Shown here piece after piece: positions 5,369-64,000 of a DNA stretch of 64,000 nucleotides. Each line of letters starts with the position of its first letter. The stretch's first letter is position 1. Under the pieces are notes generated by a model, which had not been told where the DNA came from, searched no databases, and saw only the letters and a program-made list of their open reading frames with translations. Both the position numbers and the translations under genes were made by a program. The stretch comes from Eledone cirrhosa (taxonomy: Eukaryota): contig CAXHJY010000080.1 of assembly GCA_964016885.1 (NCBI GenBank), positions 1-64,000 of the forward strand. Reading direction: 5' to 3'.

Positions 5369-7092
5369 ATACAAATATATATAATATATATATAGTCTAA
5401 TCAGTATATCAGTATAGTTTGATGAAGCTGCCCAATTGTTAGAATATTTACTTAATTTTATATAGCAACAGAAAAGATGCCCTTTAAATCAACAAATATT
5501 TAAATATAAATATACATTCCTTCAAAATTGTAATAAGTTTAAAAATTACATGAGAACTAAAGCCCTTTTTAGCATAATCAAATATCAATAAAATCTAGGT
5601 TATTTATATAAATTCTATTCAGCTCATTGTCTTATTGCTAGATTGTAAAATATTGTAAATTGATTAAAGTGTTCTTAACTTAATATTTTATCATGTACAT
5701 CATAAAATAAGTTTAATTCTGGTAAATTGGTTATTAAATCTTTATATTGTATTAATTGCTGTAGTTATTTAATCTAAATATTTATTCATAATATTCATTA
5801 AATAATTTAATATATACTTAAAATATCTATTTCTACTTTAATTTATTCAAATAAAATGCATTTGTTATTGGTTATTTTTAATGATAAATAACATAATCAT
5901 AACATTAAGTTGTAATTTATAAATATTTTATCAAAGTATCATTGTGTGGTTATACATATGTTTACTATTTTATGCAATTGTATTATTAAACTGTATTACA
6001 TGTTAATGATAATATTACAATAATTTTATCAGAGTTATCATTGTCATTATTATTAATAGTAGTAAAAATAATGTGTCTAGTGTTTTAAATGGCAATCAAT
6101 TATATATGCTTAGTAAATATGGTCATGAGAATGAGTAGTCACTCGGTACCATAGTAGAGATAGATATATTCTTTATTAAGACCAAGCTTGAGACTTATTA
6201 ACCTCAGGTTTTTTCTGTGTACTCACTGTGTCATCAGACAAGACTAATTTTCAGAGGATTGAAAGAGAGTATATATAGAAAAAAACTACTCGCTTCCTCC
6301 TCCTTTCCCTATCCCCCATTCCTCACCACCCCTGTGGTTTTTATCTCTCTATATATAATGTCTCTCCATCTTCAGAAACAGTCTTATCTGAAGACCCTGT
6401 GAGTACATGGGAGAAACTCCAAAGTAACAAGACTTAAGCTTTCCTTATCAAAGAATATATAATATATATCTATTTATACTAATGTTTAATTATATTATAC
6501 TTACATAATAATTACAACAACGAAACATGAATAATTTCCTTCTATTGGATTAATATTTGGTTAACTATAATTATGAAACTCTTAACAGTTTATTAGAAAA
6601 AGACTAAATGATAGAGGTTTAGAAACAGAATTGTAATGTGTATTAAAAAATTAATTGCAAATATAAATAATTCCTACTAAAATCAATCATATTTAAAATT
6701 AATTACATATTCATTTGCCTTTTGTACATGATATATTTGACCAAAATAACAAACTCGCCTTAATCATATTTCAGCCACACCTACACCTCCTGGTAAGTAC
6801 TCATGCTTTATTTTCAATCGTGGGTAACCACAGTAAGTAAGGCACTAAATACATTAATATAGTGTAAACAACAAATTTAATATAGAAATGGCTTCTACAG
6901 GATTGGAACTGTTTCATTCAAAGGAGACAGCTTCCCTGTTATATGTATGTATAATATATATATATATATATATATATAGGTGAAACAATTGTTCTCGGTA
7001 TGGTGAACTAACTGTTCTGTAACCACTTCTACTTAACTCGTCCCATGGACTGAGTGCTCTACCACTACCGATATTACCTTCCAGTGTTCTAC

Positions 7093-10100: not shown

Positions 10101-13100
10101 AGGTTTTCAGAAATTTATCACTTTCGTTGGGTATCATTAAAGTCTGCAGACAATCTATGATGAATGTTAATTTGTTAAATATTTGAGTGTTATTAAAATC
10201 TCTAGTTCTTCTATGATAAATATTGAATTATTATATATGTGGCAGTGTTAATTGATGGCTACCTCCCTATTCTCTAGGTAAATGTAATGCTGCCAAATCA
10301 GACATTGTGTTCGTTCTGGATTCTTCAACTAGCGTTACTGATGTGAACTTCAAGAAAATCTTAGCTTTTGTAAAAGACTTTCTATCGGAGGCTAGTATTG
10401 ACAATGGTAATGTGAGAGTAGGGGCAGTGATTTATAGCACTGACGTACAAGTGCAGTTTCATTTGAATCACTACCATTCAAAGAGAGATATCCTCAATGC
10501 TATTGACAACATTGCCTATGTGTATGGAAGCACAAATACATATGGAGGTCTGCACACAGCCAGAAGACAGATGTTTACTGCAGAAAATGGTGACAGAGCC
10601 GGTATTCCTAATATTATTTTCCTTATTACTGATGGCGTTTCCAACATCAACGCTTTACAAACCATACCAGAAGCCGAAGCTATTCGTGCAGAAAAGATCC
10701 ATATTTACGCTATAGGTATAGGCCTTGCAGAAACTACAGAACTTGACAAAATTGCATCATATCCACCATCAGAAAACAGTTTCACTGTCGAAGATTTTAA
10801 TCAGCTTTATGATTTAAAACACCAAATATTTGATTCTTTCTGTCCGGGTACGTATATTACGTAGATTATGTCAGTTGTTGCGTTTCGTTTCTTTCATGTC
10901 GGTCAACATCACTTTGTAGTGTCATTCTACATATTAATTGTACACATGTTTATTGTGTTACATCTAATCTGTCTCCTTGGTCAATCATTTCTTTTGTTGT
11001 TCTTGCTGAAATTTCAGTTGAACGAGGTTTTGTTTTGTATTTGATCGATTGTAAATGTTGTTGTTACTGTTCACTATCAATGATATTTGTTCATATTATT
11101 ATACACATAACAGTTTATATTTTCTCCAATATGTTTGTGAGAAATATTCAATTTAAAATATAATCAAATTGACACAATTATAAAATTAGATATTCTGTTT
11201 TGTCTATGTATTGTGATGGGCTGTTGCCAGAATTTGTATATTCATAAGTAATATTCAATTATATTTGTTCACATTGCAGAATATGTTCTCTCTAATGTGA
11301 ATTATTATTGAAATTATTTCTTTTCTATGTGTTGATATCTATCCATATCACACTACATTCTTTATGTTGTTGTTGCTGGTTACTCTTGATGTTATCAACA
11401 TAATATTGTTATCGTTATATATCAGTCTGTTTTTACTAAGTTCCTGTTATATGTTTGGATATTTCTGTTGTTATATGGTGTTTTGAACAAGATAATCCAC
11501 TTGTTTCAGTAAGGTTACATGTGTCTTTATAATATTTGTAAAGAGAATTTCCTCTTACCGTGATTGTGAACGCTAGGCATAACTATGAGTAAATCTGGAA
11601 TTACTAATTATATCTGACTAGTTTATTGCACTTTTCCACTTTACAGTAAGACCTGAAGTAACAACTCCACATCCAAAACCACCTGGTAAGATATTTTAAA
11701 TGGTTTTCTTTGTTACTTAGTTTCAAATAAGAGATCTGTAACTATTGGCTAGAATTAAGTTCTTTAAAGTATACATGATCTAATTGAAGGAAAGTCTATG
11801 GAAATCTAGTGATTTCTTAAATATTTGAGTGTTATTAAATTCTCTAGATGTTCTATGATAAATATTGAATTATTATATATGTGGTAGTGTTAATTGATGG
11901 CTACCTCCCTATTCTCTAGGTAAATGTAATGCTGCTGAATCAGACATTGTGTTCGTTCTGGATTCTTCAACTAGCGTTACTGATGTGAACTTCAAGAAAA
12001 TCTTAGCTTTTGTGAAAGACTTTCTATCGGAGGCTAGTATTGACAATGGTAATGTGAGAGTAGGGGCAGTGATTTATAGCACTGACGTACAAGTGCAGTT
12101 TCATTTGAATCACTACCATTCAAAGAGAGATATCCTCAATGCTATTGACAACATTGCCTATGTGTATGGAAGCACAAATACATATGGAGGTCTGCACACA
12201 GCCAGAAGACAGATGTTTACTGCAGAAAATGGTGACAGAGCCGGTATTCCTAATATTATTTTCCTTATTACTGATGGCGTTTCCAACATCAACGCTTTTC
12301 AAACCATACCAGAAGCCAAAGCTATTCGTGCAGAAAACATCCATATTTACGCTATAGGTATAGGCCTTGCAGAAACTACAGAACTTGACAAAATTGCATC
12401 ATATCCACCATCAGAAAACAGTTTCACTGTCGAAGATTTTAATCAGCTTTATGATTTAAAACACCAAATATTTGATTCTTTCTGTCCGGGTACGTATATT
12501 ACGTAGATTATGTCAGTTGTTGCGTTTCGTTTCTTTCATGTCGGTCAACATCACTTTGTAGTGTCATTCTACATATTAATTGTACACATGTTTATTGTGT
12601 TACATCTAATCTGTCTCCTTGGTCAATCATTTCTTTTGTTGTTCTTGCAGAAATTTCAGTTGAACGAGGTTTTGTTTTGTATTTGATCGATTGTAAATGT
12701 TGTTGTTACTGTTCACTATCAATGATATTTGTTCATATTATAATACACATAACAGTTTATATTTTGTCCAATATGTTTGTGAGAAAGATTCAATTGAAAA
12801 TATAATCAAATTGACACAATTATAGAATTAGATATTCTGTTTTGTCTATGTATTGTGATGGGCTGTTGCCAGAATTTGTATATTCATAAGTAATATTCAA
12901 TTATATTTGTTCACATTGCAGAATATGTTCTCTCTAATGTGAATTATTATTGAAATTATTTCTTTTCTATGTGTTGATATCTATCCATATCACACTACAT
13001 TCTTTATGTTGTTGTTGCTGGTTACTCTTGATGTTATCAACATAATATTGTTATCGTTATATATCAGTCTGTTTTTACTAAGTTCCTGTTATATGTTTGG

Positions 13101-16100
13101 ATATTTCTGTTGTTATATGGTGTTTTGAACAAGATAATCCACTTGTTTCCGTAAGGTTACATGTGTCTATATAATATTTGTAAAGAGAATTTCCTCTTAC
13201 CGTGATTGTGAACGCTAGGCATAACTATGAGTAAATCTGGAATTACTAATTATATCTGACTAGTTTATTGCACTTTTCCACTTTACAGTAAGACCTGAAG
13301 TAACAACTCCACATCCAAAACCACCTGGTAAGATATTTTAAATGGTTTTCTTTGTTACTTAGTTTCAAATAAGAGATCTGTAACTATTGGCTAGAATTAA
13401 GTTCTTTAAAGTATACATGATCTAATTGAAGGAAAGTCTATGGAAATCTAGTGATTTCTTAAATATTTGAGTGTTATTAAATATTCTCTAGATGTTCTAT
13501 GATAAATATTGAATTATTATATATGTGGCAGTGTTAATTGATGGCTACCTCCCTATTCTCTAGGTAAATGTAATGCTGCTGAATCAGACATTGTGTTCGT
13601 TCTGGATTCTTCAACTAGCGTTACTGATGTGAACTTCAAGAAAATCTTAGCTTTTGTGAAAGACTTTCTATCGGAGGCTAGTATTGACAATGGTAATGTG
13701 AGAGTAGGGGCAGTGATTTATAGCACTGACGTACAAGTGCAGTTTCATTTGAATTACTACCATTCAAAGAGAGATATCCTCAATGCTATTGACAACATTG
13801 CCTATGTGTATGGAAGCACAAATACATATGGAGGTCTGCACACAGCCAGAAGACAGATGTTTACTGCAGAAAATGGTGACAGAGCCGGTATTCCTAATAT
13901 TATTTTCCTTATTACTGATGGCGTTTCCAACATCAACGCTTTACAAACCATACCAGAAGCCGAAGCTATTCGTGCAGAAAACATCCATATTTACGCTATA
14001 GGTATAGGCCTTGCAGAAACTACAGAACTTGACAAAATTGCATCATATCCACCATCAGAAAACAGTTTCACTGTCGAAGATTTTAATCAGCTTTATGATT
14101 TAAAACACCAAATATTTGATTCTTTCTGTCCGGGTACGTATATTACGTAGATTATGTCAGTTGTTGCGTTTCGTTTCTTTCATGTCGGTCAACATCACTT
14201 TGTAGTGTCATTCTACATATTAATTGTACACATGTTTATTGTGTTACATCTAATCTGTCTCCTTGGTCAATCATTTCTTTTGTTGTTCTTGCTGAAATTT
14301 CAGTTGAACGAGGTTTTGTTTTGTATTTGATCGATTGTAAATGTTGTTGTTACTGTTCACTATCAATGATATTTGTTCATATTATAATACACATAACAGT
14401 TTATATTTTGTCCAATATGTTTGTGAGAAATATTCAATTGAAAATATAATCAAATTGACACAATTATAGAATTAGATATTCTGTTTTGTCTATGTATTGT
14501 GATGGGCTGTGGCCAGAATTTGTATATTCATAAGTAATATTCAATTATATTTGTTCACATTGCAGAATATGTTCTCTCTAATGTGAATTATTATTGAAAT
14601 TATTTCTTTTCTATGTGTTGATATCTATCCATATCACACTACATTCTTTATGTTGTTGTTGCTGGTTACTCTTGATGTTATCAACATAATATTGTTATCG
14701 TTATATATCAGTCTGTTTTTACTAAGTTCCTGTTATATGTTTGGATATTTCTGTTGTTATATGGTGTTTTGAACAAGATAATCCACTTGTTTCAGTAAGG
14801 TTACATGTCTCTATATAATATTTGTAAAGAGAATTTCCTCTTACCGTGATTGTGAACGCTAGGCATAACTATGAGTTAATCTGGAATTACTAATTATATC
14901 TGACTAGTTTATTGAACTTTTCCACTTTACAGTAAGACCTGAAGTAACAACTCCACATCCAAAACCACCTGGTAAGATATTTTAAATGGTTTTCTTTGTT
15001 ACTTAGTTTCAAATAAGAGATCTGTAACTATTGGCTAGAATTAAGTTCTTTAAAGTATACATGATCTAATTGAAGGAAAGTCTATGGAAATCTAGTGATT
15101 TCTTAAATATTTGAGTGTTATTAAATATTCTCTAGATGTTCTATGATAAATATTGAATTATTATATATGTGGCAGTGTTAATTGATGGCTACCTCCCTAT
15201 TCTCTAGGTAAATGTAATGCTGCTGAATCAGACATTGTGTTCGTTCTGGATTCTTCAACTAGCGTTACTGATGTGAACTTCAAGAAAATCTTAGCTTTTG
15301 TGAAAGACTTTCTATCGGAGGCTAGTATTGACAATGGTAATGTGAGAGTAGGGGCAGTGATTTATAGCACTGACGTACAAGTGCAGTTTCATTTGAATCA
15401 CTACCATTCAAAGAGAGATATCCTCAATGCTATTGACAACATTGCCTATGTGTATGGAAGCACAAATACATATGGAGGTCTGCACACAGCCAGAAGACAG
15501 ATGTTTACTGCAGAAAATGGTGACAGAGCCGGTATTCCTAATATTATTTTCCTTATTACTGATGGCGTTTCCAACATCAACGCTTTACAAACCATACCAG
15601 AAGCCGAAGCTATTCGTGCAGAAAACATCCATATTTACGCTATAGGTATAGGCCTTGCAGAAACTACAGAACTTGACAAAATTGCATCATATCCACCATC
15701 AGAAAACAGTTTCACTGTCGAAGATTTTAATCAGCTTTATGATTTAAAACACCAAATATTTGATTCTTTCTGTCCGGGTACGTATATTACGTAGATTATG
15801 TCAGTTGTTGTCGTTTCTTTCATGTCGGTCAACATCACTTTGTAGTGTCATTCTTCATATTAATTGTACACATGTTTATTGTGTTACATCTAATCTGTCT
15901 CCTTGGTCAATCATTTCTTTTGTTGTTCTTGCTGAAATTTCAGTTGAACGAGGTTTTGTTTTGTATTTGATCGATTGTAAATGTTGTTGTTACTGTTCAC
16001 TATCAATGATATTTGTTCATATTATAATACACATAACAGTTTATATTTTGTCCAATATGTTTGTGAGAAATATTCAATTGAAAATATAATCAAATTGACA

Positions 16101-19100
16101 CAATTATAGAATTAGATATTCTGTTTTGTCTATGTATTGTGATGGGCTGTTGCCAGAATTTGTATATTCATAAGTAATATTCAATTATATTTGTTCACAT
16201 TGCAGAATATGTTCTCTCTAATGTGAATTATTATTGAAATTATTTTTTTTCTATGTGTTGATATCTATCCATATCACACTACATTCTTTATGTTGTTGTT
16301 GCTGGTTACTCTTGATGTTATCAACATAATATTGTTATCGTTATATATCAGTCTGTTTTTACTAAGTTCCTGTTATATGTTTGGATATTTCTGTTGTTAT
16401 ATGGTGTTTTGAACAAGATAATCCACTTGTTTCAGTAAGGTTACATGTGTCTATATAATATTTGTAAAGAGAATTTCCTCTTACCGTGATTGTGAACGCT
16501 AGGCATAACTATGAGTTAATCTGGAATTACTAATTATATCTGACTAGTTTATTGAACTTTTCCACTTTACAGTAAGACCTGAAGTAACAACTCCACATCC
16601 AAAACCACCTGGTAAGATATTTTAAATGGTTTTCTTTGTTACTTAGTTTCAAATAAGAGATCTGTAACTATTGGCTAGAATTAAGTTCTTTAAAGTATAC
16701 ATGATCTAATTGAAGGAAAGTCTATGGAAATCTAGTGATTTCTTAAATATTTGAGTGTTATTAAATATTCTCTAGATGTTCTATGATAAATATTGAATTA
16801 TTATATATGTGGCAGTGTTAATTGATGGCTACCTCCCTATTCTCTAGGTAAATGTAATGCTGCTGAATCAGACATTGTGTTCGTTCTGGATTCTTCAACT
16901 AGCGTTACTGATGTGAACTTCAAGAAAATCTTAGCTTTTGTGAAAGACTTTCTATCGGAGGCTAGTATTGACAATGGTAATGTGAGAGTAGGGGCAGTGA
17001 TTTATAGCACTGACGTACAAGTGCAGTTTCATTTGAATTACTACCATTCAAAGAGAGATATCCTCAATGCTATTGACAACATTGCCTATGTGTATGGAAG
17101 CACAAATACATATGGAGGTCTGCACACAGCCAGAAGACAGATGTTTACTGCAGAAAATGGTGACAGAGCCGGTATTCCTAATATTATTTTCCTTATTACT
17201 GATGGCGTTTCCAACATCAACGCTTTACAAACCATACCAGAAGCCGAAGCTATTCGTGCAGAAAACATCCATATTTACGCTATAGGTATAGGCCTTGCAG
17301 AAACTACAGAACTTGACAAAATTGCATCATATCCACCATCAGAAAACAGTTTCACTGTCGAAGATTTTAATCAGCTTTATGATTTAAAACACCAAATATT
17401 TGATTCTTTCTGTCCGGGTACGTATATTACGTAGATTATGTCAGTTGTTGCGTTTCGTTTCTTTCATGTCGGTCAACATCACTTTGTAGTGTCATTCTAC
17501 ATATTAATTGTACACATGTTTATTGTGTTACATCTAATCTGTCTCCTTGGTCAATCATTTCTTTTGTTGTTCTTGCTGAAATTTCAGTTGAACGAGGTTT
17601 TATTTTATATTTTATCGATTGTATATGTTGTTGTTACTGTTCACTATCAATGATATTTGTTCATATTATAATACACATAACAGTTTATATTTTCTCCAAT
17701 ATGTTTGTGAGAAATATTCAATTTAAAATATAATCAAATTGACACAATTATAGAATTAGATATTCTGTTTTGTCTATGTATTGTGATGGGCTGTTGCCAG
17801 AATTTGTATATTCATAAGTAATATTCAATTATATTTGTTCACATTGCAGAATATGTTCTCTCTAATGTGAATTATTATTGAAATTATTTCTTTTCTATGT
17901 GTTGATATCTATCCATATCACACTACATTCTTTATGTTGTTGTTGCTGGTTACTCTTGATGTTATCAACATAATATTGTTATCGTTATATATCAGTCTGT
18001 TTTTACTAAGTTCCTGTTATATGTTTGGATATTTCTGTTGTTATATGGTGTTTTGAACAAGATAATCCACTTGTTTCAGTAAGGTTACATGTCTCTATAT
18101 AATATTTGTAAAGAGAATTTCCTCTTACCGTGATTGTGAACGCTAGGCATAACTATGAGTAAATCTGGAATTACTAATTATATCTGACTAGTTTATTGCA
18201 CTTTTCCACTTTACAGTAAGAACTGAAGTAACAACTCCACATCTAAAACCACCTGGTAAGATATTTTAAATGGTTTTCTTTGTTACTTAGTTTCAAAGTA
18301 AGAGATCTGTAACTATTGGCTAGAATTAAGTTCTTTAAAGTATACATGATCTAATTGAAGGAAAGTCTATGGAAATCTAGTGATTTCTTAAATATTTGAG
18401 TGTTATTAAATTCTCTAGATGTTCTATGATAAATATTGAATTATTATATATGTGGCAGTGTTAATTGATGGCTACCTCCCTATTCTCTAGGTAAATGTAA
18501 TGCTGCTGAATCAGACATTGTGTTCGTTCTGGATTCTTCAACTAGCGTTACTGATGTGAACTTCAAGAAAATCTTAGCTTTTGTGAAAGACTTTCTATCG
18601 GAGGCTAGTATTGACAATGGTAATGTGAGAGTAGGGGCAGTGATTTATAGCACTGACGTACAAGTGCAGTTTCATTTGAATCACTACCATTCAAAGAGAG
18701 ATATCCTCAATGCTATTGACAACATTGCCTATGTGTATGGAAGCACAAATACATATGGAGGTCTGCACACAGCCAGAAGACAGATGTTTACTGCAGAAAA
18801 TGGTGACAGAGCCGGTATTCCTAATATTATTTTCCTTATTACTGATGGCGTTTCCAACATCAACGCTTTACAAACCATACCAGAAGCCGAAGCTATTCGT
18901 GCAGAAAACATCCATATTTACGCTATAGGTATAGGCCTTGCAGAAACTACAGAACTTGACAAAATTGCATCATATCCACCATCAGAAAACAGTTTCACTG
19001 TCGAAGATTTTAATCAGCTTTATGATTTAAAACACCAAATATTTGATTCTTTCTGTCCGGGTACGTATATTACGTAGATTATGTCAGTTGTTGCGTTTCG

Positions 19101-22100: not shown

Positions 22101-25100
22101 ATTCCTAATATTATTTTCCTTATTACTGATGGCGTTTCCAACATCAACGCTTTACAAACCATACCAGAAGCCGAAGCTATTCGTGCAGAAAACATCCATA
22201 TTTACGCTATAGGTATAGGCCTTGCAGAAACTACAGAACTTGACAAAATTGCATCATATCCACCATCAGAAAACAGTTTCACTGTCGAAGATTTTAATCA
22301 GCTTTATGATTTAAAACACCAAATATTTGATTCTTTCTGTCCGGGTACGTATATTACGTAGATTATGTCAGTTGTTGTCGTTTCTTTCATGTCGGTCAAC
22401 ATCACTTTGTAGTGTCATTCTTCATATTAATTGTACACATGTTTATTGTGTTACATCTAATCTGTCTCCTTGGTCAATCATTTCTTTTGTTGTTCTTGCT
22501 GAAATTTCAGTTGAACGAGGTTTTGTTTTGTATTTGATCGATTGTAAATGTTGTTGTTACTGTTCACTATCAATGATATTTGTTCATATTATAATACACA
22601 TAACAGTTTATATTTTGTCCAATATGTTTGTGAGAAATATTCAATTGAAAATATAATCAAATTGACACAATTATAGAATTAGATATTCTGTTTTGTCTAT
22701 GTATTGTGATGGGCTGTGGCCAGAATTTGTATATTCATAAGTAATATTCAATTATATTTGTTCACATTGCAGAATATGTTCTCTCTAATGTGAATTATTA
22801 TTGAAATTATTTCTTTTCTATGTGTTGATATCTATCCATATCACACTACATTCTTTATGTTGTTGTTGCTGGTTACTCTTGATGTTATCAACATAATATT
22901 GTTATCGTTATATATCAGTCTGTTTTTACTAAGTTCCTGTTATATGTTTGGATATTTCTGTTGTTATATGGTGTTTTGAACAAGATAATCCACTTGTTTC
23001 AGTAAGGTTACATGTCTCTATATAATATTTGTAAAGAGAATTTCCTCTTACCGTGATTGTGAACGCTAGGCATAACTATGAGTTAATCTGGAATTACTAA
23101 TTATATCTGACTAGTTTATTGAACTTTTCCACTTTACAGTAAGACCTGAAGTAACAACTCCACATCCAAAACCACCTGGTAAGATATTTTAAATGGTTTT
23201 CTTTGTTACTTAGTTTCAAATAAGAGATCTGTAACTATTGGCTAGAATTAAGTTCTTTAAAGTATACATGATCTAATTGAAGGAAAGTCTATGGAAATCT
23301 AGTGATTTCTTAAATATTTGAGTGTTATTAAATATTCTCTAGATGTTCTATGATAAATATTGAATTATTATATATGTGGCAGTGTTAATTGATGGCTACC
23401 TCCCTATTCTCTAGGTAAATGTAATGCTGCTGAATCAGACATTGTGTTCGTTCTGGATTCTTCAACTAGCGTTACTGATGTGAACTTCAAGAAAATCTTA
23501 GCTTTTGTGAAAGACTTTCTATCGGAGGCTAGTATTGACAATGGCAATGTGAGAGTAGGGGCAGTGATTTATAGCACTGACGTACAAGTGCAGTTTCATT
23601 TGAATTACTACCATTCAAAGAGAGATATCCTCAATGCTATTGACAACATTGCCTATGTGTATGGAAGCACAAATACATATGGAGGTCTGCACACAGCCAG
23701 AAGACAGATGTTTACTGCAGAAAATGGTGACAGAGCCGGTATTCCTAATATTATTTTCCTTATTACTGATGGCGTTTCCAACATCAACGCTTTACAAACC
23801 ATACCAGAAGCCGAAGCTATTCGTGCAGAAAACATCCATATTTACGCTATAGGTATAGGCCTTGCAGAAACTACAGAACTTGACAAAATTGCATCATATC
23901 CACCATCAGAAAACAGTTTCACTGTCGAAGATTTTAATCAGCTTTATGATTTAAAACACCAAATATTTGATTCTTTCTGTCCGGGTACGTATATTACGTA
24001 GATTATGTCAGTTGTTGCGTTTCGTTTCTTTCATGTCGGTCAACATCACTTTGTAGTGTCATTCTACATATTAATTGTACACATGTTTATTGTGTTACAT
24101 CTAATCTGTCTCCTTGGTCAATCATTTCTTTTGTTGTTCTTGCTGAAATTTCAGTTGAACGAGGTTTTGTTTTATATTTTATCGATTGTATATGTTGTTG
24201 TTACTGTTCACTATCAATGATATTTGTTCATATTATAATACACATAACAGTTTATATTTTCTCCAATATGTTTGTGAGAAATATTCAATTTAAAATATAA
24301 TCAAATTGACACAATTATAGAATTAGATATTCTGTTTTGTCTATGTATTGTGATGGGCTGTTGCCAGAATTTGTATATTCATAAGTAATATTCAATTATA
24401 TTTGTTCACATTGCAGAATATGTTCTCTCTAATGTGAATTATTATTGAAATTATTTCTTTTCTATGTGTTGATATCTATCCATATCACACTACATTCTTT
24501 ATGTTGTTGTTGCTGGTTACTCTTGATGTTATCAACATAATATTGTTATCGTTATATATCAGTCTGTTTTTACTAAGTTCCTGTTATATGTTTGGATATT
24601 TCTGTTGTTATATGGTGTTTTGAACAAGATAATCCACTTGTTTCAGTAAGGTTACATGTCTCTATATAATATTTGTAAAGAGAATTTCCTCTTACCGTGA
24701 TTGTGAACGCTAGGCATAACTATGAGTAAATCTGGAATTACTAATTATATCTGACTAGTTTATTGCACTTTTCCACTTTACAGTAAGAACTGAAGTAACA
24801 ACTCCACATCCAAAACCACCTGGTAAGATATTTTAAATGGTTTTCTTTGTTACTTAGTTTCAAAGTAAGAGATCTGTAACTATTGGCTAGAATTAAGTTC
24901 TTTAAAGTATACATGATCTAATTGAAGGAAAGTCTATGGAAATCTAGTGATTTCTTAAATATTTGAGTGTTATTAAATTCTCTAGATGTTCTATGATAAA
25001 TATTGAATTATTATATATGTGGCAGTGTTAATTGATGGCTACCTCCCTATTCTCTAGGTAAATGTAATGCTGCTGAATCAGACATTGTGTTCGTTCTGGA

Positions 25101-55100: not shown

Positions 55101-58100
55101 GAAGCCGAAGCTATTCGTGCAGAAAACATCCATATTTACGCTATAGGTATAGGCCTTGCAGAAACTACAGAACTTGACAAAATTGCATCATATCCACCAT
55201 CAGAAAACAGTTTCACTGTCGAAGATTTTAATCAGCTTTATGATTTAAAACACCAAATATTTGATTCTTTCTGTCCGGGTACGTATATTACGTAGATTAT
55301 GTCAGTTGTTGTCGTTTCTTTCATGTCGGTCAACATCACTTTGTAGTGTCATTCTACATATTAATTGTACACATGTTTATTGTGTTACATCTAATCTGTC
55401 TCCTTGGTCAATCATTTCTTTTGTTGTTCTTGCTGAAATTTCAGTTGAACGAGGTTTTGTTTTGTATTTGATCGATTGTAAATGTTGTTGTTACTGTTCA
55501 CTATCAATGATATTTGTTCATATTATAATACACATAACAGTTTATATTTTGTCCAATATGTTTGTGAGAAATATTCAATTGAAAATATAATCAAATTGAC
55601 ACAATTATAGAATTAGATATTCTGTTTTGTCTATGTATTGTGATGGGCTGTTGCCAGAATTTGTATATTCATAAGTAATATTCAATTATATTTGTTCACA
55701 TTGCAGAATATGTTCTCTCTAATGTGAATTATTATTGAAATTATTTCTTTTCTATGTGTTGATATCTATCCATATCACACTACATTCTTTACGTTGTTGT
55801 TGCTGGTTACTCTTGATGTTATCTCTTCTCTTGTTATCAACATAATATTGTTATCGTTATATATCAGTCTGTTTTTACTAAGTTCCTGTTATATGTTTGG
55901 ATATTTCTGTTGTTATATGGTGTTTTGAACAAGATAATCCACTTGTTTCAGTAAGGTTACATGTCTCTATATAATATTTGTAAAGAGAATTTCCTCTTAC
56001 CGTGATTGTGAACGCTAGGCATAACTATGAGTAAATCTGGAATTACTAATTATATCTGACTAGTTTATTGCACTTTTCCACTTTACAGTAAGACCTGAAG
56101 TAACAACTCCACATCCAAAACCACCTGGTAAGATATTTTAAATGGTTTTCTTTGTTACTTAGTTTCAAATAAGAGATCTGTAACTATTGGCTAGAATTAA
56201 GTTCTTTAAAGTATACATGATCTAATTGAAGGAAAGTCTATGGAAATCTAGTGATTTCTTAAATATTTGAGTGTTATTAAATATTCTCTAGATGTTCTAT
56301 GATAAATATTGAATTATTATATATGTGGCAGTGTTAATTGATGGCTACCTCCCTATTCTCTAGGTAAATGTAATGCTGCTGAATCAGACATTGTGTTCGT
56401 TCTGGATTCTTCAACTAGCGTTACTGATGTGAACTTCAAGAAAATCTTAGCTTTTGTGAAAGACTTTCTATCGGAGGCTAGTATTGACAATGGTAATGTG
56501 AGAGTAGGGGCAGTGATTTATAGCACTGACGTACAAGTGCAGTTTCATTTGAATCACTACCATTCAAAGAGAGATATCCTCAATGCTATTGACAACATTG
56601 CCTATGTGTATGGAAGCACAAATACATATGGAGGTCTGCACACAGCCAGAAGACAGATGTTTACTGCAGAAAATGGTGACAGAGCCGGTATTCCTAATAT
56701 TATTTTCCTTATTACTGATGGCGTTTCCAACATCAACGCTTTACAAACCATACCAGAAGCCGAAGCTATTCGTGCAGAAAACATCCATATTTACGCTATA
56801 GGTATAGGCCTTGCAGAAACTACAGAACTTGACAAAATTGCATCATATCCACCATCAGAAAACAGTTTCACTGTCGAAGATTTTAATCAGCTTTATGATT
56901 TAAAACACCAAATATTTGATTCTTTCTGTCCGGGTACGTATATTACGTAGATTATGTCAGTTGTTGCGTTTCGTTTCTTTCATGTCGGTCAACATCACTT
57001 TGTAGTGTCATTCTACATATTAATTGTACACATGTTTATTGTGTTACATCTAATCTGTCTCCTTGGTCAATCATTTGTTTTGTTGTTCTTGCTGAAATTT
57101 CAGTTGAACGAGGTTTTGTTTTGTATTTGATCGATTGTAAATGTTGTTGTTACTGTTCACTATCAATGATATTTGTTCATATTATAATACACATAACAGT
57201 TTATATTTTGTCCAATATGTTTGTGAGAAATATTCAATTTAAAATATAATCAAATTGACACAATTATAGAATTAGATATTCTGTTTTGTCTATGTATTGT
57301 GATGGGCTGTTGCCAGAATTTGTATATTCATAAGTAATATTCAATTATATTTGTTCACATTGCAGAATATGTTCTCTCTAATGTGAATTATTATTGAAAT
57401 TATTTCTTTTCTATGTGTTGATATCTATCCATATCACACTACATTCTTTACGTTGTTGTTGCTGGTTACTCTTGATGTTATCTCTTCTCTTGTTATCAAC
57501 ATAATATTGTTATCGTTATATATCAGTCTGTTTTTACTAAGTTCCTGTTATATGTTTGGATATTTCTGTTGTTATATGGTGTTTTGAACAAGATAATCCA
57601 CTTGTTTCAGTAAGGTTACATGTCTCTATATAATATTTGTAAAGAGAATTTCCTCTTACCGTGATTGTGAACGCTAGGCATAACTATGAGTAAATCTGGA
57701 ATTACTAATTATATCTGACTAGTTTATTGCACTTTTCCACTTTACAGTAAGACCTGAAGTAACAACTCCACATCCAAAACCACCTGGTAAGATATTTTAA
57801 ATGGTTTTCTTTGTTACTTAGTTTCAAATAAGAGATCTGTAACTATTGGCTAGAATTAAGTTCTTTAAAGTATACATGATCTAATTGAAGGAAAGTCTAT
57901 GGAAATCTAGTGATTTCTTAAATATTTGAGTGTTATTAAATTCTCTAGATGTTCTATGATAAATATTGAATTATTATATATGTGGCAGTGTTAATTGATG
58001 GCTACCTCCCTATTCTCTAGGTAAATGTAATGCTGCTGAATCAGACATTGTGTTCGTTCTGGATTCTTCAACTAGCGTTACTGATGTGAACTTCAAGAAA

Positions 58101-61100
58101 ATCTTAGCTTTTGTGAAAGACTTTCTATCGGAGGCTAGTATTGACAATGGTAATGTGAGAGTAGGGGCAGTTATTTATAGCACTGACGTACAAGTGCAGT
58201 TTCATTTGAATCACTACCATTCAAAGAGAGATATCCTCAATGCTATTGACAACATTGCCTATGTGTATGGAAGCACAAATACATATGGAGGTCTGCACAC
58301 AGCCAGAAGACAGATGTTTACTGCAGAAAATGGTGACAGAGCCGGTATTCCTAATATTATTTTCCTTATTACTGATGGCGTTTCCAACATCAACGCTTTA
58401 CAAACCATACCAGAAGCCGAAGCTATTCGTGCAGAAAACATCCATATTTACGCTATAGGTATAGGCCTTGCAGAAACTACAGAACTTGACAAAATTGCAT
58501 CATATCCACCATCAGAAAACAGTTTCACTGTCGAAGATTTTAATCAGCTTTATGATTTAAAACACCAAATATTTGATTCTTTCTGTCCGGGTACGTATAT
58601 TACGTAGATTATGTCAGTTGTTGCGTTTCGTTTCTTTCATGTCGGTCAACATCACTTTGTAGTGTCATTCTACATATTAATTGTACACATGTTTATTGTG
58701 TTACATCTAATCTGTCTCCTTGGTCAATCATTTCTTTTGTTGTTCTTGCTGAAATTTCAGTTGAACGAGGTTTTGTTTTGTATTTTATCGATTGTAAATG
58801 TTGTTGTTACTGTTCACTATCAATGATATTTGTTCATATTATAATACACATAACAGTTTATATTTTCTCCAATATGTTTGTGAGAAATATTCAATTGAAA
58901 ATATAATCAAATTGACACAATTATAGAATTAGATATTCTGTTTTGTCTATGTATTGTGATGGGCTGTTGCCAGAATTTGTATATTCATAAGTAATATTCA
59001 ATTATATTTGTTCACATTGCAGAATATGTTCTCTCTAATGTGAATTATTATTGAAATTATTTCTTTTCTATGTGTTGATATCTATCCATATCACACTACA
59101 TTCTTTATGTTGTTGTTGCTGGTTACTCTTGATGTTATCAACATAATATTGTTATCGTTATATATCAGTCTGTTTTTACTAAGTTCCTGTTATATGTTTG
59201 GATATTTCTGTTGTTATATGGTGTTTTGAACAAGATAATCCACTTGTTTCAGTAAGGTTACATGTCTCTATATAATATTTGTAAAGAGAATTTCCTCTTA
59301 CCGTGATTGTGAATGCTAGGCATAACTATGAGTAAATCTGGAATTACTAATTATATCTGACTAGTTTATTGCACTTTTCCACTTTACAGTAAGACCTGAA
59401 GTAACAACTCCACATCCAAAACCACCTGGTAAGATATTTTAAATGGTTTTCTTTGTTACTTAGTTTCAAATAAGAGATCTGTAACTATTGGCTAGAATTA
59501 AGTTCTTTAAAGTATACATGATCTAATTGAAGGAAAGTCTATGGAAATCTAGTGATTTCTTAAATATTTGAGTGTTATTAAATATTCTCTAGATGTTCTA
59601 TGATAAATATTGAATTATTATATATGTGGCAGTGTTAATTGATGGCTACCTCCCTATTCTCTAGGTAAATGTAATGCTGCTGAATCAGACATTGTGTTCG
59701 TTCTGGATTCTTCAACTAGCGTTACTGATGTGAACTTCAAGAAAATCTTAGCTTTTGTGAAAGACTTTCTATCGGAGGCTAGTATTGACAATGGTAATGT
59801 GAGAGTAGGGGCAGTGATTTATAGCACTAACGTACAAGTGCAGTTTCATTTGAATCACTACCATTCAAAGAGAGATATCCTCAATGCTATTGACAACATT
59901 GCCTATGTGTATGGAAGCACAAATACATATGGAGGTCTGCACACAGCCAGAAGACAGATGTTTACTGCAGAAAATGGTGACAGAGCCGGTATTCCTAATA
60001 TTATTTTCCTTATTACTGATGGCGTTTCCAACATCAACGCTTTACAAACCATACCAGAAGCCGAAGCTATTCGTGCAGAAAACATCCATATTTACGCTAT
60101 AGGTATAGGCCTTGCAGAAACTACAGAACTTGACAAAATTGCATCATATCCACCATCAGAAAACAGTTTCACTGTCGAAGATTTTAATCAGCTTTATGAT
60201 TTAAAACACCAAATATTTGATTCTTTCTGTCCGGGTACGTATATTACGTAGATTATGTCAGTTGTTGTCGTTTCTTTCATGTCGGTCAACATCACTTTGT
60301 AGTGTCATTCTACATATTAATTGTACACATGTTTATTGTGTTACATCTAATCTGTCTCCTTGGTCAATCATTTCTTTTGATGTTCTTGCTGAAATTTCAG
60401 TTGAACGAGGTTTTGTTTTGTATTTTATCGATTGTAAATGTTGTTGTTACTGTTCACTATCAATGATATTTGTTCATATTATAATACACATAACAGTTTA
60501 TATTTTGTCCAATATGTTTGTGAGAAATATTCAATTGAAAATATAATCAAATTGACACAATTATAGAATTAGATATTCTGTTTTGTCTATGTATTGTGAT
60601 GGGCTGTTGCCAGAATTTGTATATTCATAAGTAATATTCAATTATATTTGTTCACATTGCAGAATATGTTCTCTCTAATGTGAATTATTATTGAAATTAT
60701 TTCTTTTCTATGTGTTGATATCTATCCATATCACACTACATTCTTTATGTTGTTGTTGCTGGTTACTCTTGATGTTATCAACATAATATTGTTATCGTTA
60801 TATATCAGTCTGTTTTTACTAAGTTCCTGTTATATGTTTGGATATTTCTGTTGTTATATGGTGTTTTGAACAAGATAATCCATTTGTTTCAGTAAGGTTA
60901 CATGTCTCTATATAATATTTGTAAAGAGAATTTCCTCTTACCGTGATTGTGAACGCTAGGCATAACTATGAGTAAATCTGGAATTACTAATTATATCTGA
61001 CTAGTTTATTGCACTTTTCCACTTTACAGTAAGACCTGAAGTAACAACTCCACATCCAAAACCACCTGGTAAGATATTTTAAATGGTTTTCTTTGTTACT

Positions 61101-63512
61101 TAGTTTCAAATAAGAGATCTGTAACTATTGGCTAGAATTAAGTTCTTTAAAGTATACATGATCTAATTGAAGGAAAGTCTATGGAAATCTAGTGATTTCT
61201 TAAATATTTGAGTGTTATTAAATATTCTCTAGATGTTCTATGATAAATATTGAATTATTATATATGTGGCAGTGTTAATTGATGGCTACCTCCCTATTCT
61301 CTAGGTAAATGTAATGCTGCTGAATCAGACATTGTGTTCGTTCTGGATTCTTCAACTAGCGTTACTGATGTGAACTTCAAGAAAATCTTAGCTTTTGTGA
61401 AAGACTTTCTATCGGAGGCTAGTATTGACAATGGTAATGTGAGAGTAGGGGCAGTGATTTATAGCACTGACGTACAAGTGCAGTTTCATTTGAATTACTA
61501 CCATTCAAAGAGAGATATCCTCAATGCTATTGACAACATTGCCTATGTGTATGGAAGCACAAATACATATGGAGGTCTGCACACAGCCAGAAGACAGATG
61601 TTTACTGCAGAAAATGGTGACAGAGCCGGTATTCCTAATATTATTTTCCTTATTACTGATGGCGTTTCCAACATCAACGCTTTACAAACCATACCAGAAG
61701 CCGAAGCTATTCGTGCAGAAAACATCCATATTTACGCTATAGGTATAGGCCTTGCAGAAACTACAGAACTTGACAAAATTGCATCATATCCACCATCAGA
61801 AAACAGTTTCACTGTCGAAGATTTTAATCAGCTTTATGATTTAAAACACCAAATATTTGATTCTTTCTGTCCGGGTACGTATATTACGTAGATTATGTCA
61901 GTTGTTGTCGTTTCTTTCATGTCGGTCAACATCACTTTGTAGTGTCATTCTACATATTAATTGTACGCATGTTTATTGTGTTACATCTAATCTGTCTCCT
62001 TGGTCAATCATTTCTTTTGTTGTTCTTGCTGAAATTTCAGTTGAACGAGGTTTTGTTTTGTATTTTATCGATTGTAAATGTTGTTGTTACTGTTCACTAT
62101 CAATGATATTTGTTCATATTATAATACACATAACAGTTTATATTTTGTCCAATATGTTTGTGAGAAATATTCAATTGAAAATATAATCAAATTGACACAA
62201 TTATAGAATTAGATATTCTGTTTTGTCTATGTATTGTGATGGGCTGTTGCCAGAATTTGTATATTCATAAGTAATATTCAATTATATTTGTTCACATTGC
62301 AGAATATGTTCTCTCTAATGTGAATTATTATTGAAATTATTTCTTTTCTATGTGTTGATATCTATCCATATCACACTACATTCTTTATGTTGTTGTTGCT
62401 GGTTACTCTTGATGTTATCAACATAATATTGTTATCGTTATATATCAGTCTGTTTTTACTAAGTTCCTGTTATATGTTTGGATATTTCTGTTGTTATATG
62501 GTGTTTTGAACAAGATAATCCACTTGTTTCAGTAAGGTTACATGTGTCTATATAATATTTGTAAAGAGAATTTCCTCTTACCGTGATTGTGAACGCTAGG
62601 CATAACTATGAGTAAATCTGGAATTACTAATTATATCTGACTAGTTTATTGCACTTTTCCACTTTACAGTAAGACCTGAAGTAACAACTCCACATCCAAA
62701 ACCACCTGGTAAGATATTTTAAATGGTTTTCTTTGTTACTTAGTTTCAAATAAGAGATCTGTAACTATTGGCTAGAATTAAGTTCTTTAAAGTATACATG
62801 ATCTAATTGAAGGAAAGTCTATGGAAATTTAGTGATTTCTTAAATATTTGAGTGTTATTAAATTCTCTAGATGTTCTATGATAAATATTGAATTATTATA
62901 TATGTGGCAGTGTTAATTGATGGCTACCTCCCTATTCTCTAGGTAAATGTAATGCTGCTGAATCAGACATTGTGTTCGTTCTGGATTCTTCAACTAGCGT
63001 TACTGATGTGAACTTCAAGAAAATCTTAGCTTTTGTGAAAGACTTTCTATCGGAGGCTAGTATTGACAATGGTAATGTGAGAGTAGGGGCAGTGATTTAT
63101 AGCACTGACGTACAAGTGCAGTTTCATTTGAATCACTACCATTCAAAGAGAGATATCCTCAATGCTATTGACAACATTGCCTATGTGTATGGAAGCACAA
63201 ATACATATGGAGGTCTGCACACAGCCAGAAGACAGATGTTTACTGCAGAAAATGGTGACAGAGCCGGTATTCCTAATATTATTTTCCTTATTACTGATGG
63301 CGTTTCCAACATCAACGCTTTTCAAACCATACCAGAAGCCGAAGCTATTCGTGCAGAAAACATCCATATTTACGCTATAGGTATAGGCCTTGCAGAAACT
63401 ACAGAACTTGACAAAATTGCATCATATCCACCATCAGAAAACAGTTTCACTGTCGAAGATTTTAATCAGCTTTATGATTTAAAACACCAAATATTTGATT
63501 CTTTCTGTCCGG
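1591..63512 (+). CDS. Partial multi-exon gene for a giant tandem VWA-domain extracellular protein (collagen VI / matrilin-type VWA modules); 5' and 3' ends outside the window
   Basis: 68 GT-AG bounded phase 1-1 exons join in one open frame: 546 + 18 + 18 + 33x570 + 32x39 nt. No start codon, signal peptide or terminal exon seen. Confidence 0.85.
2481..3030. repeat. 21-bp minisatellite (consensus tgtgggtacattctctggtgt), roughly 25-26 copies, intronic
   Basis: Seen directly; causes the overlapping heptad-repeat ORFs on both strands. Confidence 0.95.
4211..4232. repeat. Poly(T) tract, 22 nt
   Basis: Seen directly. Confidence 0.9.
5318..5364. repeat. Compound (CA)n(TA)n microsatellite
   Basis: Seen directly. 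Confidence 0.9.
6191..6245 (-). ncRNA. Decayed hammerhead-like motif (inverted paralog of 6380-6434)
   Basis: Minus strand reads agtcttgt CTGATGA cacagtgagtacacagaa aaaa cctgagg tta ataagtct; stem II broken and GAAA changed to AAAA in this register. Confidence 0.4.
6380..6434 (+). ncRNA. Minimal type I hammerhead ribozyme-like motif
   Basis: Stem I agtcttat/acaagact (7 of 8 pairs), core CUGAAGA, stem II ccctgtg-agta-catggga (closing C.A mismatch), GAAA, stem III ACU-ccaa-AGU, cleavage triplet GUA. Confidence 0.6.
6775..6792 (+). CDS. 18-nt micro-exon, phase 1-1, encodes ATPTPP
   Basis: atatttcag|ccacacctacacctcctg|gtaagt; ends like the 39-nt array linker (cctg|gtaag). Confidence 0.75.
6955..6978. 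repeat. (TA)n microsatellite
   Basis: Seen directly. Confidence 0.9.
7096..7135. repeat. (TA)20 microsatellite
   Basis: Seen directly. Confidence 0.9.
7389..7406 (+). CDS. 18-nt micro-exon, phase 1-1, encodes VVTQPT
   Basis: Long pyrimidine tract, aatttcag|ttgttacacaaccaactg|gtaagt. Confidence 0.75.
8801..8851. mobile_element. Possible short interspersed-repeat fragment
   Basis: GC-richer island ctggtttcaatcattgaactggggccatgctagggcactg resembling, from memory, a common octopus SINE end; not verified by search. Confidence 0.3.
10278..10847 (+). CDS. VWA exon, unit 1 (570 nt; private variants AAKS, EKIHI)
   Basis: ccctattctctag| acceptor, ccgg|gtacgt donor; GKC..DIVFVLDSSTS..GSTNT..ITDG..FCP with MIDAS DxSxS/T/D and flanking Cys pair. 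Confidence 0.93.
11647..11685 (+). CDS. Linker exon 1 (39 nt, VRPEVTTPHPKPP)
   Basis: cttttccactttacag| acceptor, cctg|gtaaga donor, phase 1-1, Pro/Thr rich. Confidence 0.85.
11920..12489 (+). CDS. VWA exon, unit 2 (L>F, E>K)
   Basis: Same splice sites and open frame as unit 1. Confidence 0.93.
13289..13327 (+). CDS. Linker exon 2
   Basis: As linker 1. Confidence 0.85.
13564..14133 (+). CDS. VWA exon, unit 3 (H>Y)
   Basis: As unit 1. Confidence 0.93.
14933..14971 (+). CDS. Linker exon 3
   Basis: As linker 1. Confidence 0.85.
15208..15777 (+). CDS. VWA exon, unit 4
   Basis: As unit 1. Confidence 0.93.
16573..16611 (+). CDS. Linker exon 4
   Basis: As linker 1. Confidence 0.85.
16848..17417 (+). 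CDS. VWA exon, unit 5 (H>Y)
   Basis: As unit 1. Confidence 0.93.
18217..18255 (+). CDS. Linker exon 5 (variant VRTEVTTPHLKPP)
   Basis: As linker 1 with two substitutions. Confidence 0.85.
18491..19060 (+). CDS. VWA exon, unit 6
   Basis: As unit 1. Confidence 0.93.
19858..19896 (+). CDS. Linker exon 6
   Basis: As linker 1. Confidence 0.85.
20132..20701 (+). CDS. VWA exon, unit 7 (H>Y)
   Basis: As unit 1. Confidence 0.93.
21501..21539 (+). CDS. Linker exon 7
   Basis: As linker 1. Confidence 0.85.
21775..22344 (+). CDS. VWA exon, unit 8
   Basis: As unit 1. Confidence 0.93.
23140..23178 (+). CDS. Linker exon 8
   Basis: As linker 1. Confidence 0.85.
23415..23984 (+). CDS. VWA exon, unit 9 (H>Y)
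   Basis: As unit 1. Confidence 0.93.
24784..24822 (+). CDS. Linker exon 9 (variant VRTEVTTPHPKPP)
   Basis: As linker 1 with one substitution. Confidence 0.85.
25058..25627 (+). CDS. VWA exon, unit 10
   Basis: As unit 1. Confidence 0.93.
26425..26463 (+). CDS. Linker exon 10
   Basis: As linker 1. Confidence 0.85.
26699..27268 (+). CDS. VWA exon, unit 11 (H>Y)
   Basis: As unit 1. Confidence 0.93.
28066..28104 (+). CDS. Linker exon 11
   Basis: As linker 1. Confidence 0.85.
28339..28908 (+). CDS. VWA exon, unit 12 (L>F, E>K)
   Basis: As unit 1. Confidence 0.93.
29704..29742 (+). CDS. Linker exon 12
   Basis: As linker 1. Confidence 0.85.
29977..30546 (+). CDS. VWA exon, unit 13 (L>F, E>K)
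   Basis: As unit 1. Confidence 0.93.
31342..31380 (+). CDS. Linker exon 13
   Basis: As linker 1. Confidence 0.85.
31615..32184 (+). CDS. VWA exon, unit 14 (L>F, E>K)
   Basis: As unit 1. Confidence 0.93.
32980..33018 (+). CDS. Linker exon 14
   Basis: As linker 1. Confidence 0.85.
33255..33824 (+). CDS. VWA exon, unit 15 (T>I)
   Basis: As unit 1. Confidence 0.93.
34624..34662 (+). CDS. Linker exon 15
   Basis: As linker 1. Confidence 0.85.
34899..35468 (+). CDS. VWA exon, unit 16 (L>F, T>I)
   Basis: As unit 1. Confidence 0.93.
36268..36306 (+). CDS. Linker exon 16
   Basis: As linker 1. Confidence 0.85.
36543..37112 (+). CDS. VWA exon, unit 17 (L>F)
   Basis: As unit 1. Confidence 0.93.
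37908..37946 (+). CDS. Linker exon 17
   Basis: As linker 1. Confidence 0.85.
38183..38752 (+). CDS. VWA exon, unit 18
   Basis: As unit 1. Confidence 0.93.
39567..39605 (+). CDS. Linker exon 18
   Basis: As linker 1. Confidence 0.85.
39840..40409 (+). CDS. VWA exon, unit 19
   Basis: As unit 1. Confidence 0.93.
41224..41262 (+). CDS. Linker exon 19
   Basis: As linker 1. Confidence 0.85.
41499..42068 (+). CDS. VWA exon, unit 20
   Basis: As unit 1. Confidence 0.93.
42883..42921 (+). CDS. Linker exon 20
   Basis: As linker 1. Confidence 0.85.
43156..43725 (+). CDS. VWA exon, unit 21
   Basis: As unit 1. Confidence 0.93.
44525..44563 (+). CDS. Linker exon 21
   Basis: As linker 1. Confidence 0.85.
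44800..45369 (+). CDS. VWA exon, unit 22 (D>N)
   Basis: As unit 1. Confidence 0.93.
46180..46218 (+). CDS. Linker exon 22
   Basis: As linker 1. Confidence 0.85.
46455..47024 (+). CDS. VWA exon, unit 23
   Basis: As unit 1. Confidence 0.93.
47839..47877 (+). CDS. Linker exon 23
   Basis: As linker 1. Confidence 0.85.
48114..48683 (+). CDS. VWA exon, unit 24 (D>N)
   Basis: As unit 1. Confidence 0.93.
49494..49532 (+). CDS. Linker exon 24
   Basis: As linker 1. Confidence 0.85.
49769..50338 (+). CDS. VWA exon, unit 25
   Basis: As unit 1. Confidence 0.93.
51153..51191 (+). CDS. Linker exon 25
   Basis: As linker 1. Confidence 0.85.
51426..51995 (+). CDS. VWA exon, unit 26
   Basis: As unit 1. 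Confidence 0.93.
52795..52833 (+). CDS. Linker exon 26
   Basis: As linker 1. Confidence 0.85.
53069..53638 (+). CDS. VWA exon, unit 27 (H>Y)
   Basis: As unit 1. Confidence 0.93.
54434..54472 (+). CDS. Linker exon 27
   Basis: As linker 1. Confidence 0.85.
54709..55278 (+). CDS. VWA exon, unit 28 (D>N)
   Basis: As unit 1. Confidence 0.93.
56089..56127 (+). CDS. Linker exon 28
   Basis: As linker 1. Confidence 0.85.
56364..56933 (+). CDS. VWA exon, unit 29
   Basis: As unit 1. Confidence 0.93.
57748..57786 (+). CDS. Linker exon 29
   Basis: As linker 1. Confidence 0.85.
58021..58590 (+). CDS. VWA exon, unit 30
   Basis: As unit 1. Confidence 0.93.
59390..59428 (+). CDS. Linker exon 30
   Basis: As linker 1. 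Confidence 0.85.
59665..60234 (+). CDS. VWA exon, unit 31 (D>N)
   Basis: As unit 1. Confidence 0.93.
61030..61068 (+). CDS. Linker exon 31
   Basis: As linker 1. Confidence 0.85.
61305..61874 (+). CDS. VWA exon, unit 32 (H>Y)
   Basis: As unit 1. Confidence 0.93.
62670..62708 (+). CDS. Linker exon 32
   Basis: As linker 1. Confidence 0.85.
62943..63512 (+). CDS. VWA exon, unit 33 (L>F)
   Basis: As unit 1. Confidence 0.93.
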
Positions 63513-64000
63513 GTACGTATATTACGTAGATTATGTCAGTTGTTGTCGTTTCTTTCATGTCGGTCAACATCACTTTGTAGTGTCATTCTACATATTAATT
63601 GTACACATGTTTATTGTGTTACATCTAATCTGTCTCCTTGGTCAATCATTTCTTTTGTTGTTCTTGCTGAAATTTCAGTTGAACGAGGTTTTGTTTTGTA
63701 TTTGATCGATTGTAAATGTTGTTGTTACTGTTCACTATCAATGATATTTGTTCATATTATTATACACATAACAGTTTATATTTTGTCCAATATGTTTGTG
63801 AGAAATATTCAATTGAAAATATAATCAAATTGACACAATTATAGAATTAGATATTCTGTTTTGTCTATGTATTGTGATGGGCTGTTGCCAGAATTTGTAT
63901 ATTCATAAGTAATATTCAATTATATTTGTTCACATTGCAGAATATGTTCTCTCTAATGTGAATTATTATTGAAATTATTTCTTTTCTATGTGTTAATATC

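Follow-up and report, generated by a model that had tools for sequence, protein, structure and literature searches.

A coding array of near-identical VWA domains in Eledone cirrhosa as the probable middle of a giant secreted protein

VWA and integrin I domains bind the carboxylate of a ligand via Mg or Mn held at the metal ion-dependent adhesion site (MIDAS), and their termini lie together on the opposite face, often joined by a disulfide. Folded domains spread over several exons can form coding arrays of variable copy number, as kringle IV-2 of human LPA and the SRCR domains of DMBT1 illustrate. As described in the accessible parts of the respective papers, abalone VERL has 22 repeats of ~153 amino acids (PMC4063459), and octovafibrin, of octopus egg tethers, has 29 EGF repeats and terminal C-type lectins in a 135-kDa protein (PMC10336842). 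Here, we examine a window of Eledone cirrhosa DNA, bases 1-64,000 of contig C107 (G000:C107, 164,757 bp), that contains a tandem array of VWA-encoding exons (array A). We consider it probable, at roughly 60%, that this array is the spliced middle of one giant gene, whose secreted product would cross-link mucus or tissue matrix at many sites through bound metal ions.

Splicing and copy number of the arrays

An initial annotation, made from the letters of the window, had described 33 near-identical VWA exons and 32 linker exons in frame, and this was reproduced exactly. All 33 VWA exons are 570 nt long with AG/GT borders (starts 10278 ... 62943). Every one of the 32 complete units has a 39-nt linker exon; 30 were recovered by a strict pattern, and those of units 5 and 9 are variants in which Thr replaces Pro at linker position 3. 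The spliced frame of array A in the window has no stop, and the earlier count of 6,880 codons is correct (33x190 + 32x13 + 182 + 12). The array does run past the window, as had been said: it has 39 copies, ends on the same contig (Table 1) and is followed by a second array, B, whose VWA is 64% identical to that of array A. None of the 65 VWA exons (39 A and 26 B) contains a stop, and all exons on the contig are on the + strand and, a doubtful fourth tail exon aside, in phase 1.

Splicing between units was assessed from contigs of runs taken as RNA on account of their exon-centred cover (X4, X8, X10, X11, X14 and X17). Four of the 21 listed runs were compared with C107:72,450-79,800, and stretches lacking contig cover (the 3' end of VWA0, the exon that precedes array A, and the join of A39 to B1) were not used as evidence. 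In X4, a run from the same species, exons are covered and introns almost not, dispersed repeats aside. A 639-nt contig of this run (a period of 609 plus 30) leads from the end of VWA-A through 39 nt to the start of VWA-A; it is a collapsed repeat of period 609, and a contig of equal depth sits on the A linker exon. Two further organisms, represented by X8 and X14, likewise have 639-nt contigs that return to VWA-A, ~10% diverged. The join of B linker to B exon is present in X4 and X8, and X14 has a 645-nt B contig. Further, the depth in X14 is 346 on A and 9.03 on VWA0, a 38-fold ratio that fits one chain with ~39 A units. The proposal of one spliced gene is thus supported by unit-to-unit, RNA-like contigs in this species and two others; where the observations named beforehand as contradicting it were sought, none was found.

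The copy number also seems real. Contig depth in run X1, which covers introns, is 382 on A, 202-222 on B and 5.8-7.4 on three unique-spacer contigs; relative to single-copy sequence this amounts to ~52-66x for A and ~27-38x for B, with the proviso that contig depth is no copy number in itself. The depth suggests as many copies as were assembled or more, not fewer, and argues against over-assembly. A few-copy depth, which had been feared as a sign of over-expansion, was not seen, and the idea that other assemblies would collapse the array gained support. The average difference between units is 0.6%; 33 of 38 are distinct in A and 23 of 25 in B, and because the longest exact repeats are short (4,955 and 5,611 bp), long reads can resolve both arrays. 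These results bear on a different explanation, namely that the splice signal comes from circular RNA of a single VWA-linker pair and that the array is mostly non-coding satellite or over-expansion. The collapsed 639-nt contigs fit a circle as well as they fit a tandem mRNA. The explanation is nonetheless very unlikely, given a DNA depth that meets or exceeds the assembled number, the distinctness of most units, the integrity of all 65 exons and the presence of near-identical tandem copies in protein models of Octopus sinensis and cuttlefish.

Gene ends and the extent of the protein

A second contig, the chromosome-scale C21, carries + strand VWA exons at 19.48-19.64 Mb and a 200-N gap at 19,505,916, which, judging from sequence, C107 likely fills. 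On the 5' side, VWA0 is partly covered in four of four runs, and its 5' end is reached in one, by a 1,143-nt contig of X17. The loose end of this contig matches a C21 mini-exon (19,501,374-409) at 26 of 30 letters (4 mismatches), in frame; over the 405 kb searched, no other site has fewer than 9 mismatches, and the match is expected by chance <0.0003 times locally and ~1 time genome-wide. On the 3' side, the O. sinensis model XP_036368516.1 (LOC115223644, 4,624 amino acids) starts inside a B domain and includes five near-identical B copies. After B, it continues through two C107 tail exons to the C21 Pro/Thr exons, 15 VWA and 4 EGF domains, an acidic tail and a stop; no hydrophobic C-terminus was found in this model. 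The predicted C21 Pro/Thr mini-exons agree with it, and 54 of the 57 encode Asp or Glu, nearly all having one acidic residue near the end. At the other extreme of the gene, the Octopus bimaculoides model XP_052831933.1 matches three left-hand C21 VWA exons plus a first exon that, by hydrophobicity and position, resembles a signal peptide. Its presence in the flanking DNA supports the secretion proposed earlier.

Taken together, the likely order is a signal peptide, 3 VWA domains (with His in the MIDAS), VWA0, 39 A and 26 B domains, ~770 Pro/Thr residues, 15-18 VWA domains with 4 EGF domains, and an acidic tail. The right-hand VWA figure combines 15 in common with O. sinensis and up to 3 more here. 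We estimate 84-87 VWA domains, 18,100-18,600 amino acids and a gene span of at least 340 kb, with lengths partly borrowed from two orthologues. The earlier view of a giant protein is supported, its size having been underestimated ~2.6-fold.

That all this is one giant transcript is highly probable in our estimation, and several observations weigh against it. The runs taken as RNA are not recorded as such, and the sample behind X1 may be the very one that was assembled. The X4 depths, 11.6 on B and 8.0 on A, are contrary to the 39:26 ratio. The joins of VWA0 to A1 and of A39 to B1 are absent from the RNA contigs and rest on splice sites and frame. Both links across the C21 gap come from other species, the 5' link from a single contig and the 3' link from a predicted gene model. 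Finally, the third VWA domain is the last in both O. bimaculoides 5' models, and there may be a 630-residue short isoform that ends at this point. One can thus envisage several shorter products (this isoform, separate A and B transcripts, exon-skipped forms), with the full chain of 18,000 amino acids rare or absent. The two uncovered internal joins would suit such products, as would the uniform phase 1 of the array exons, since skipping keeps the frame, and the O. sinensis model is without three VWA exons present here. Yet an RNA-like contig continues past the end of the third VWA into VWA0, the spliced arrays are free of stops, and the A/VWA0 depth ratio in X14 is that of one chain. We therefore regard a set of shorter products as unlikely and retain the single giant chain.

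Table 1. Positions of array exons and associated features on contigs C107 and C21. Window positions are C107 positions.
Feature	Position	Strand	Remarks
Array A in window	10278..64000	+	33 VWA exons, 32 linker exons, period 1638-1659 bp
First array-A VWA exon, 570 nt	10278..10847	+	Cys3, MIDAS D15-S17-S19, T86, D119, Cys189
First array-A linker exon, 39 nt	11647..11685	+	Pro/Thr-rich
Variant linker exon of unit 5	18217..18255	+
Variant linker exon of unit 9	24784..24822	+
33rd array-A VWA exon, last in window	62943..63512	+
VWA0 exon, 546 nt	1591..2136	+	Phase 1; degenerate MIDAS (Gly for Asp)
Predicted 18-nt Pro/Thr mini-exon	6775..6792	+	Splice-site scan; absent from RNA contigs
Predicted 18-nt Pro/Thr mini-exon	7389..7406	+	Splice-site scan; absent from RNA contigs
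A units 34-39	C107, to 73,350	+
45-nt exon between arrays A and B	C107:76,848-76,892	+
Array B	C107:77,673-152,148	+	26 VWA exons, 25 linker exons of 45 nt
Three predicted Pro/Thr mini-exons	C107: 156,278; 157,842; 163,158	+
Doubtful fourth tail exon	C107 near 164,550	+	Good donor, no clear in-frame acceptor
Signal-peptide-like first exon	C21:19,468,504-576		84% identical to start of O. bimaculoides XP_052831933.1
Pro/Thr mini-exon array	C21:19,507,305-19,563,369		57 predicted, mostly 39 nt, 728 aa, repeated blocks ~2.3-3.6 kb

Other features of the two contigs deserve mention. Window positions 2490-3030, in the intron 3' of VWA0, hold a GT-rich minisatellite of ~21-bp units. The first introns of array B fall into two length classes, ~1,438 and ~1,801 bp, and their arrangement in blocks probably reflects unequal crossing-over. 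DNA searches with sequence from close to both ends of C107 returned dispersed repeats only and no overlap with another contig, and a search for longer proteins with VWA0 gave no match, which is weak evidence. On C21, the Pro/Thr mini-exons add another tandem array to the gene model, its third, and read-through past the third VWA donor (19,495,141) meets a stop within a few codons. A shortened VWA exon at C21:19,566,303-19,566,749, with intact phase-1 sites, is part of the O. bimaculoides model and not of the O. sinensis model; it is possibly an alternative exon. A further 200-N gap (C21:19,307,465-19,307,664) lies 160 kb upstream of the gene start.

Domain conservation, evolution and proposed working

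The array-A domain matches Pfam VWA (PF00092) with E=1.5e-45, and its AlphaFold model has a pLDDT (predicted local distance difference test score) of 92.9. The nearest solved folds are collagen VI alpha3 N2, integrin I domains and mussel PTMP1, with template-modelling (TM) scores of ~0.85-0.91. With positions assigned by established convention, the MIDAS (DxSxS...T...D) is present in A and B, and the cysteines at 3 and 189 are kept in both. Comparison of A with B over 190 codons shows differences at 110 third, 56 first and 38 second positions, with MIDAS and cysteines retained, and no variant within an array falls on a MIDAS residue or a cysteine. In the four N-terminal VWA domains, the first MIDAS Asp is replaced, by His in the three C21 domains and by Gly in VWA0.

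Within the arrays, exon diversity is 0.3%; 8 changes are synonymous and 11 non-synonymous, a ratio of ~0.38 per site (p=0.044). Distinct indels number 12 in introns and 0 in exons (p=0.014), a test weakened by the indel-prone nature of AT-rich introns. These figures point to weak purifying selection within the arrays. These data bear on whether one giant protein might serve mainly as a passive spacer or space-filling scaffold, with the binding of specific partners confined to the diverse terminal domains and copy number subject to neutral drift. The weak selection would agree with this, as would a copy number that seems to vary among species (five B copies in the O. sinensis model and a B/VWA0 depth of ~6 in X14); VERL repeats 3-22 are likewise described, in the accessible part of PMC4063459, as neutrally evolving and homogenised. 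Against it, the five MIDAS residues persist in A and B despite the 110 third-position differences in 190, and the four N-terminal domains, by contrast, have lost the first MIDAS Asp. A passive spacer is, in our view, quite unlikely. Given one giant transcript, our analysis makes a metal-dependent multivalent binder a probable role.

A phylogenetic tree of 63 domains, in which 4 A and 3 B copies represented the arrays and which excluded domains with weak or short profile matches (VWA0 included) as well as four divergent C21 domains, informs on the history of the arrays. Single-copy domains cluster by position across species, and those of E. cirrhosa are mostly sister to those of both Octopus species. 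In E. cirrhosa, O. sinensis and cuttlefish, B copies cluster by species; the copies of sea slug, and most of those of pond snail, fall into clades of their own. Because B copies group by species and single-copy domains by position, the sequences indicate concerted evolution of B, with repeated amplification in molluscs. B is 85-86% identical to its O. sinensis counterpart, compared with 190-191 of 191 positions within O. sinensis; for A, divergence is 0.3% within the array and ~10% to two other species.

The proposed protein would work as follows. Unequal crossing-over and gene conversion would multiply the phase-1 exon pairs and keep them alike. Each domain would be closed by a disulfide between Cys3 and Cys189, and load would pass through it. 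A stiff Pro/Thr string, probably O-glycosylated, would carry the VWA beads at intervals of ~5-6 nm with the MIDAS faces outward, and each MIDAS would take Mg, Mn or Zn plus the carboxylate of a partner. The likeliest partners would be acidic residues of collagen or of neighboring copies of the same chain, and 65 outward sites could achieve high avidity from weak single contacts. With an acidic residue in 54 of the 57 mini-exons and an acidic tail, chains could form cross-links among themselves and with collagen alike.

As to where such a protein is used, mucus or a gland secretion is our tentative first choice, at somewhat less than even odds; connective tissue or cartilage is a more doubtful candidate, and an egg coat or adhesive is improbable. 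The text of a 2024 paper on octopus mucus mentions VWFA and "collagen alpha" proteins of the skin mucus but gives no ids for them. On the other side of the balance for the proposal as a whole, a search of part of a table of skin-mucus peptides from O. vulgaris recovered neither three motifs nor the locus id; nor were motifs found in four snail-mucus supplementary files. An ambitious extension, speculative and unlikely to hold in full, is that a ~2-MDa protein contains both halves of a reversible cross-link, namely 65 beads with a MIDAS on the one hand and, on the other, more than 50 Pro/Thr repeats that bear a carboxylate, together with an acidic tail. It would self-assemble into a metal-switchable gel whose stiffness is set by species-specific copy number, and similar collapsed giants would occur in many mollusc assemblies.

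Comparison with known systems

If the model is true, a very large secreted protein has been hidden as misnamed "collagen VI-like" entries or unnamed fragments, and an unanchored 165-kb contig is placed in a chromosome gap. Concerted evolution could be followed conveniently at this locus, where it would act on two arrays of folded domains within one gene, and expression of a single repeat unit would make it possible to study how molluscan mucus or matrix is cross-linked in a multivalent, metal-dependent way. Models from cuttlefish, sea slug, oyster and abalone also have near-identical domains in tandem, which suggests further collapsed giants.

Databases already contain parts of the gene. The octopus models XP_036368516.1, XP_052831933.1 and A0A0L8FLC0 (O. 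bimaculoides) are orthologous, 64-92% identical by stretch; each covers part of the gene, and array A and VWA0 are in none. Database names such as "collagen alpha-3(VI)" and "COL6A" reflect the VWA domain only. Collagen VI alpha3 has the same fold (TM 0.89) and tandem VWA domains in common with the present protein, but the latter has 84-87 such domains as against at most 22 in collagen VI and other long VWA arrays, along with Pro/Thr linkers and EGF domains. Collagen VI itself was rejected as an identity: there is no Gly-X-Y helix (the longest run is 6 residues in two orthologous models), the O. sinensis model has no collagen Pfam family, and no Gly-X-Y domain is visible in A, B or the mini-exons.

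Among the 195 proteins retrieved, the highest VWA count is 22. Near-identical domains are found in models from fish (20 of 22, at >=90% identity, in the col6a3 model XP_068581260.1), lamprey (13 of 19), shark (12 of 20), sponge (16 of 16, partial domains) and abalone (7 of 8). The fish, lamprey, shark and sponge models and one further model (P0041, P0052, P0043, P0100, P0105, P0042) have 11-20 near-identical VWA domains, and homogenisation of VWA arrays may be a recurrent trait of animals. The present count would be a record, ~4x the most in any protein retrieved; it is provisional, because the search covers only the best 150 cluster representatives and collapsed assemblies understate counts. 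A second VWA macrosatellite is present in the same genome at C4:320.19-320.25 Mb (L057-L060), with a period of ~14.1 kb, units 97-99.5% identical and a VWA 44% identical to that of A; more copies lie at C4:319.99 and 320.42-320.89 Mb.

Other secreted proteins resemble this one in part. Mussel PTMP1 is a secreted molluscan VWA protein with a solved, zinc-occupied MIDAS (TM 0.90), but it has only two VWA domains. Papers on a semislug and a snail, in their accessible parts, name VWA/EGF matrilin-like proteins as adhesive or mucus components; the likeness to these gastropod glue and mucus proteins is one of domain make-up, and orthology is not implied. In matrilins, VWA domains alternate with EGF domains, an arrangement found here in the C-terminal part only (4 EGF stretches). 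The tail here is short and acidic, and a Pfam scan of the O. sinensis model, with no coiled-coil predictor applied, gave no coiled-coil oligomerisation match. With gel-forming mucins the protein has in common Pro/Thr-rich tandem repeats (728 amino acids over the predicted mini-exons). It was rejected as such a mucin, the VWD/C8/TIL and cystine-knot families being missing from the Pfam scan of the O. sinensis model and the 5' model having VWA families only. A Pif/BMSP shell protein was likewise rejected. That family is defined, in the accessible part of PMC11291548, by chitin-binding domains after the VWA, and the Pfam scan of the O. sinensis model found none.

In the literature searched, with most subscription papers outside the search, we found no account of this gene, including under four accession numbers. 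The suggestion that it may be undescribed stands to this extent; it must be qualified in that pieces are present in databases as separate models and that homogenised coding repeats are known. Octovafibrin is also a secreted bead-string of disulfide-closed domains, built from an unrelated unit. VERL, too, is a coding tandem array homogenised within species, with a different domain. Relative to VERL, LPA and DMBT1, the distinction of the present locus is the union of two homogenised arrays and a mini-exon array in one gene. Thus, what is new is the scale and the pair of homogenised arrays within one gene; the kind of protein is already known.

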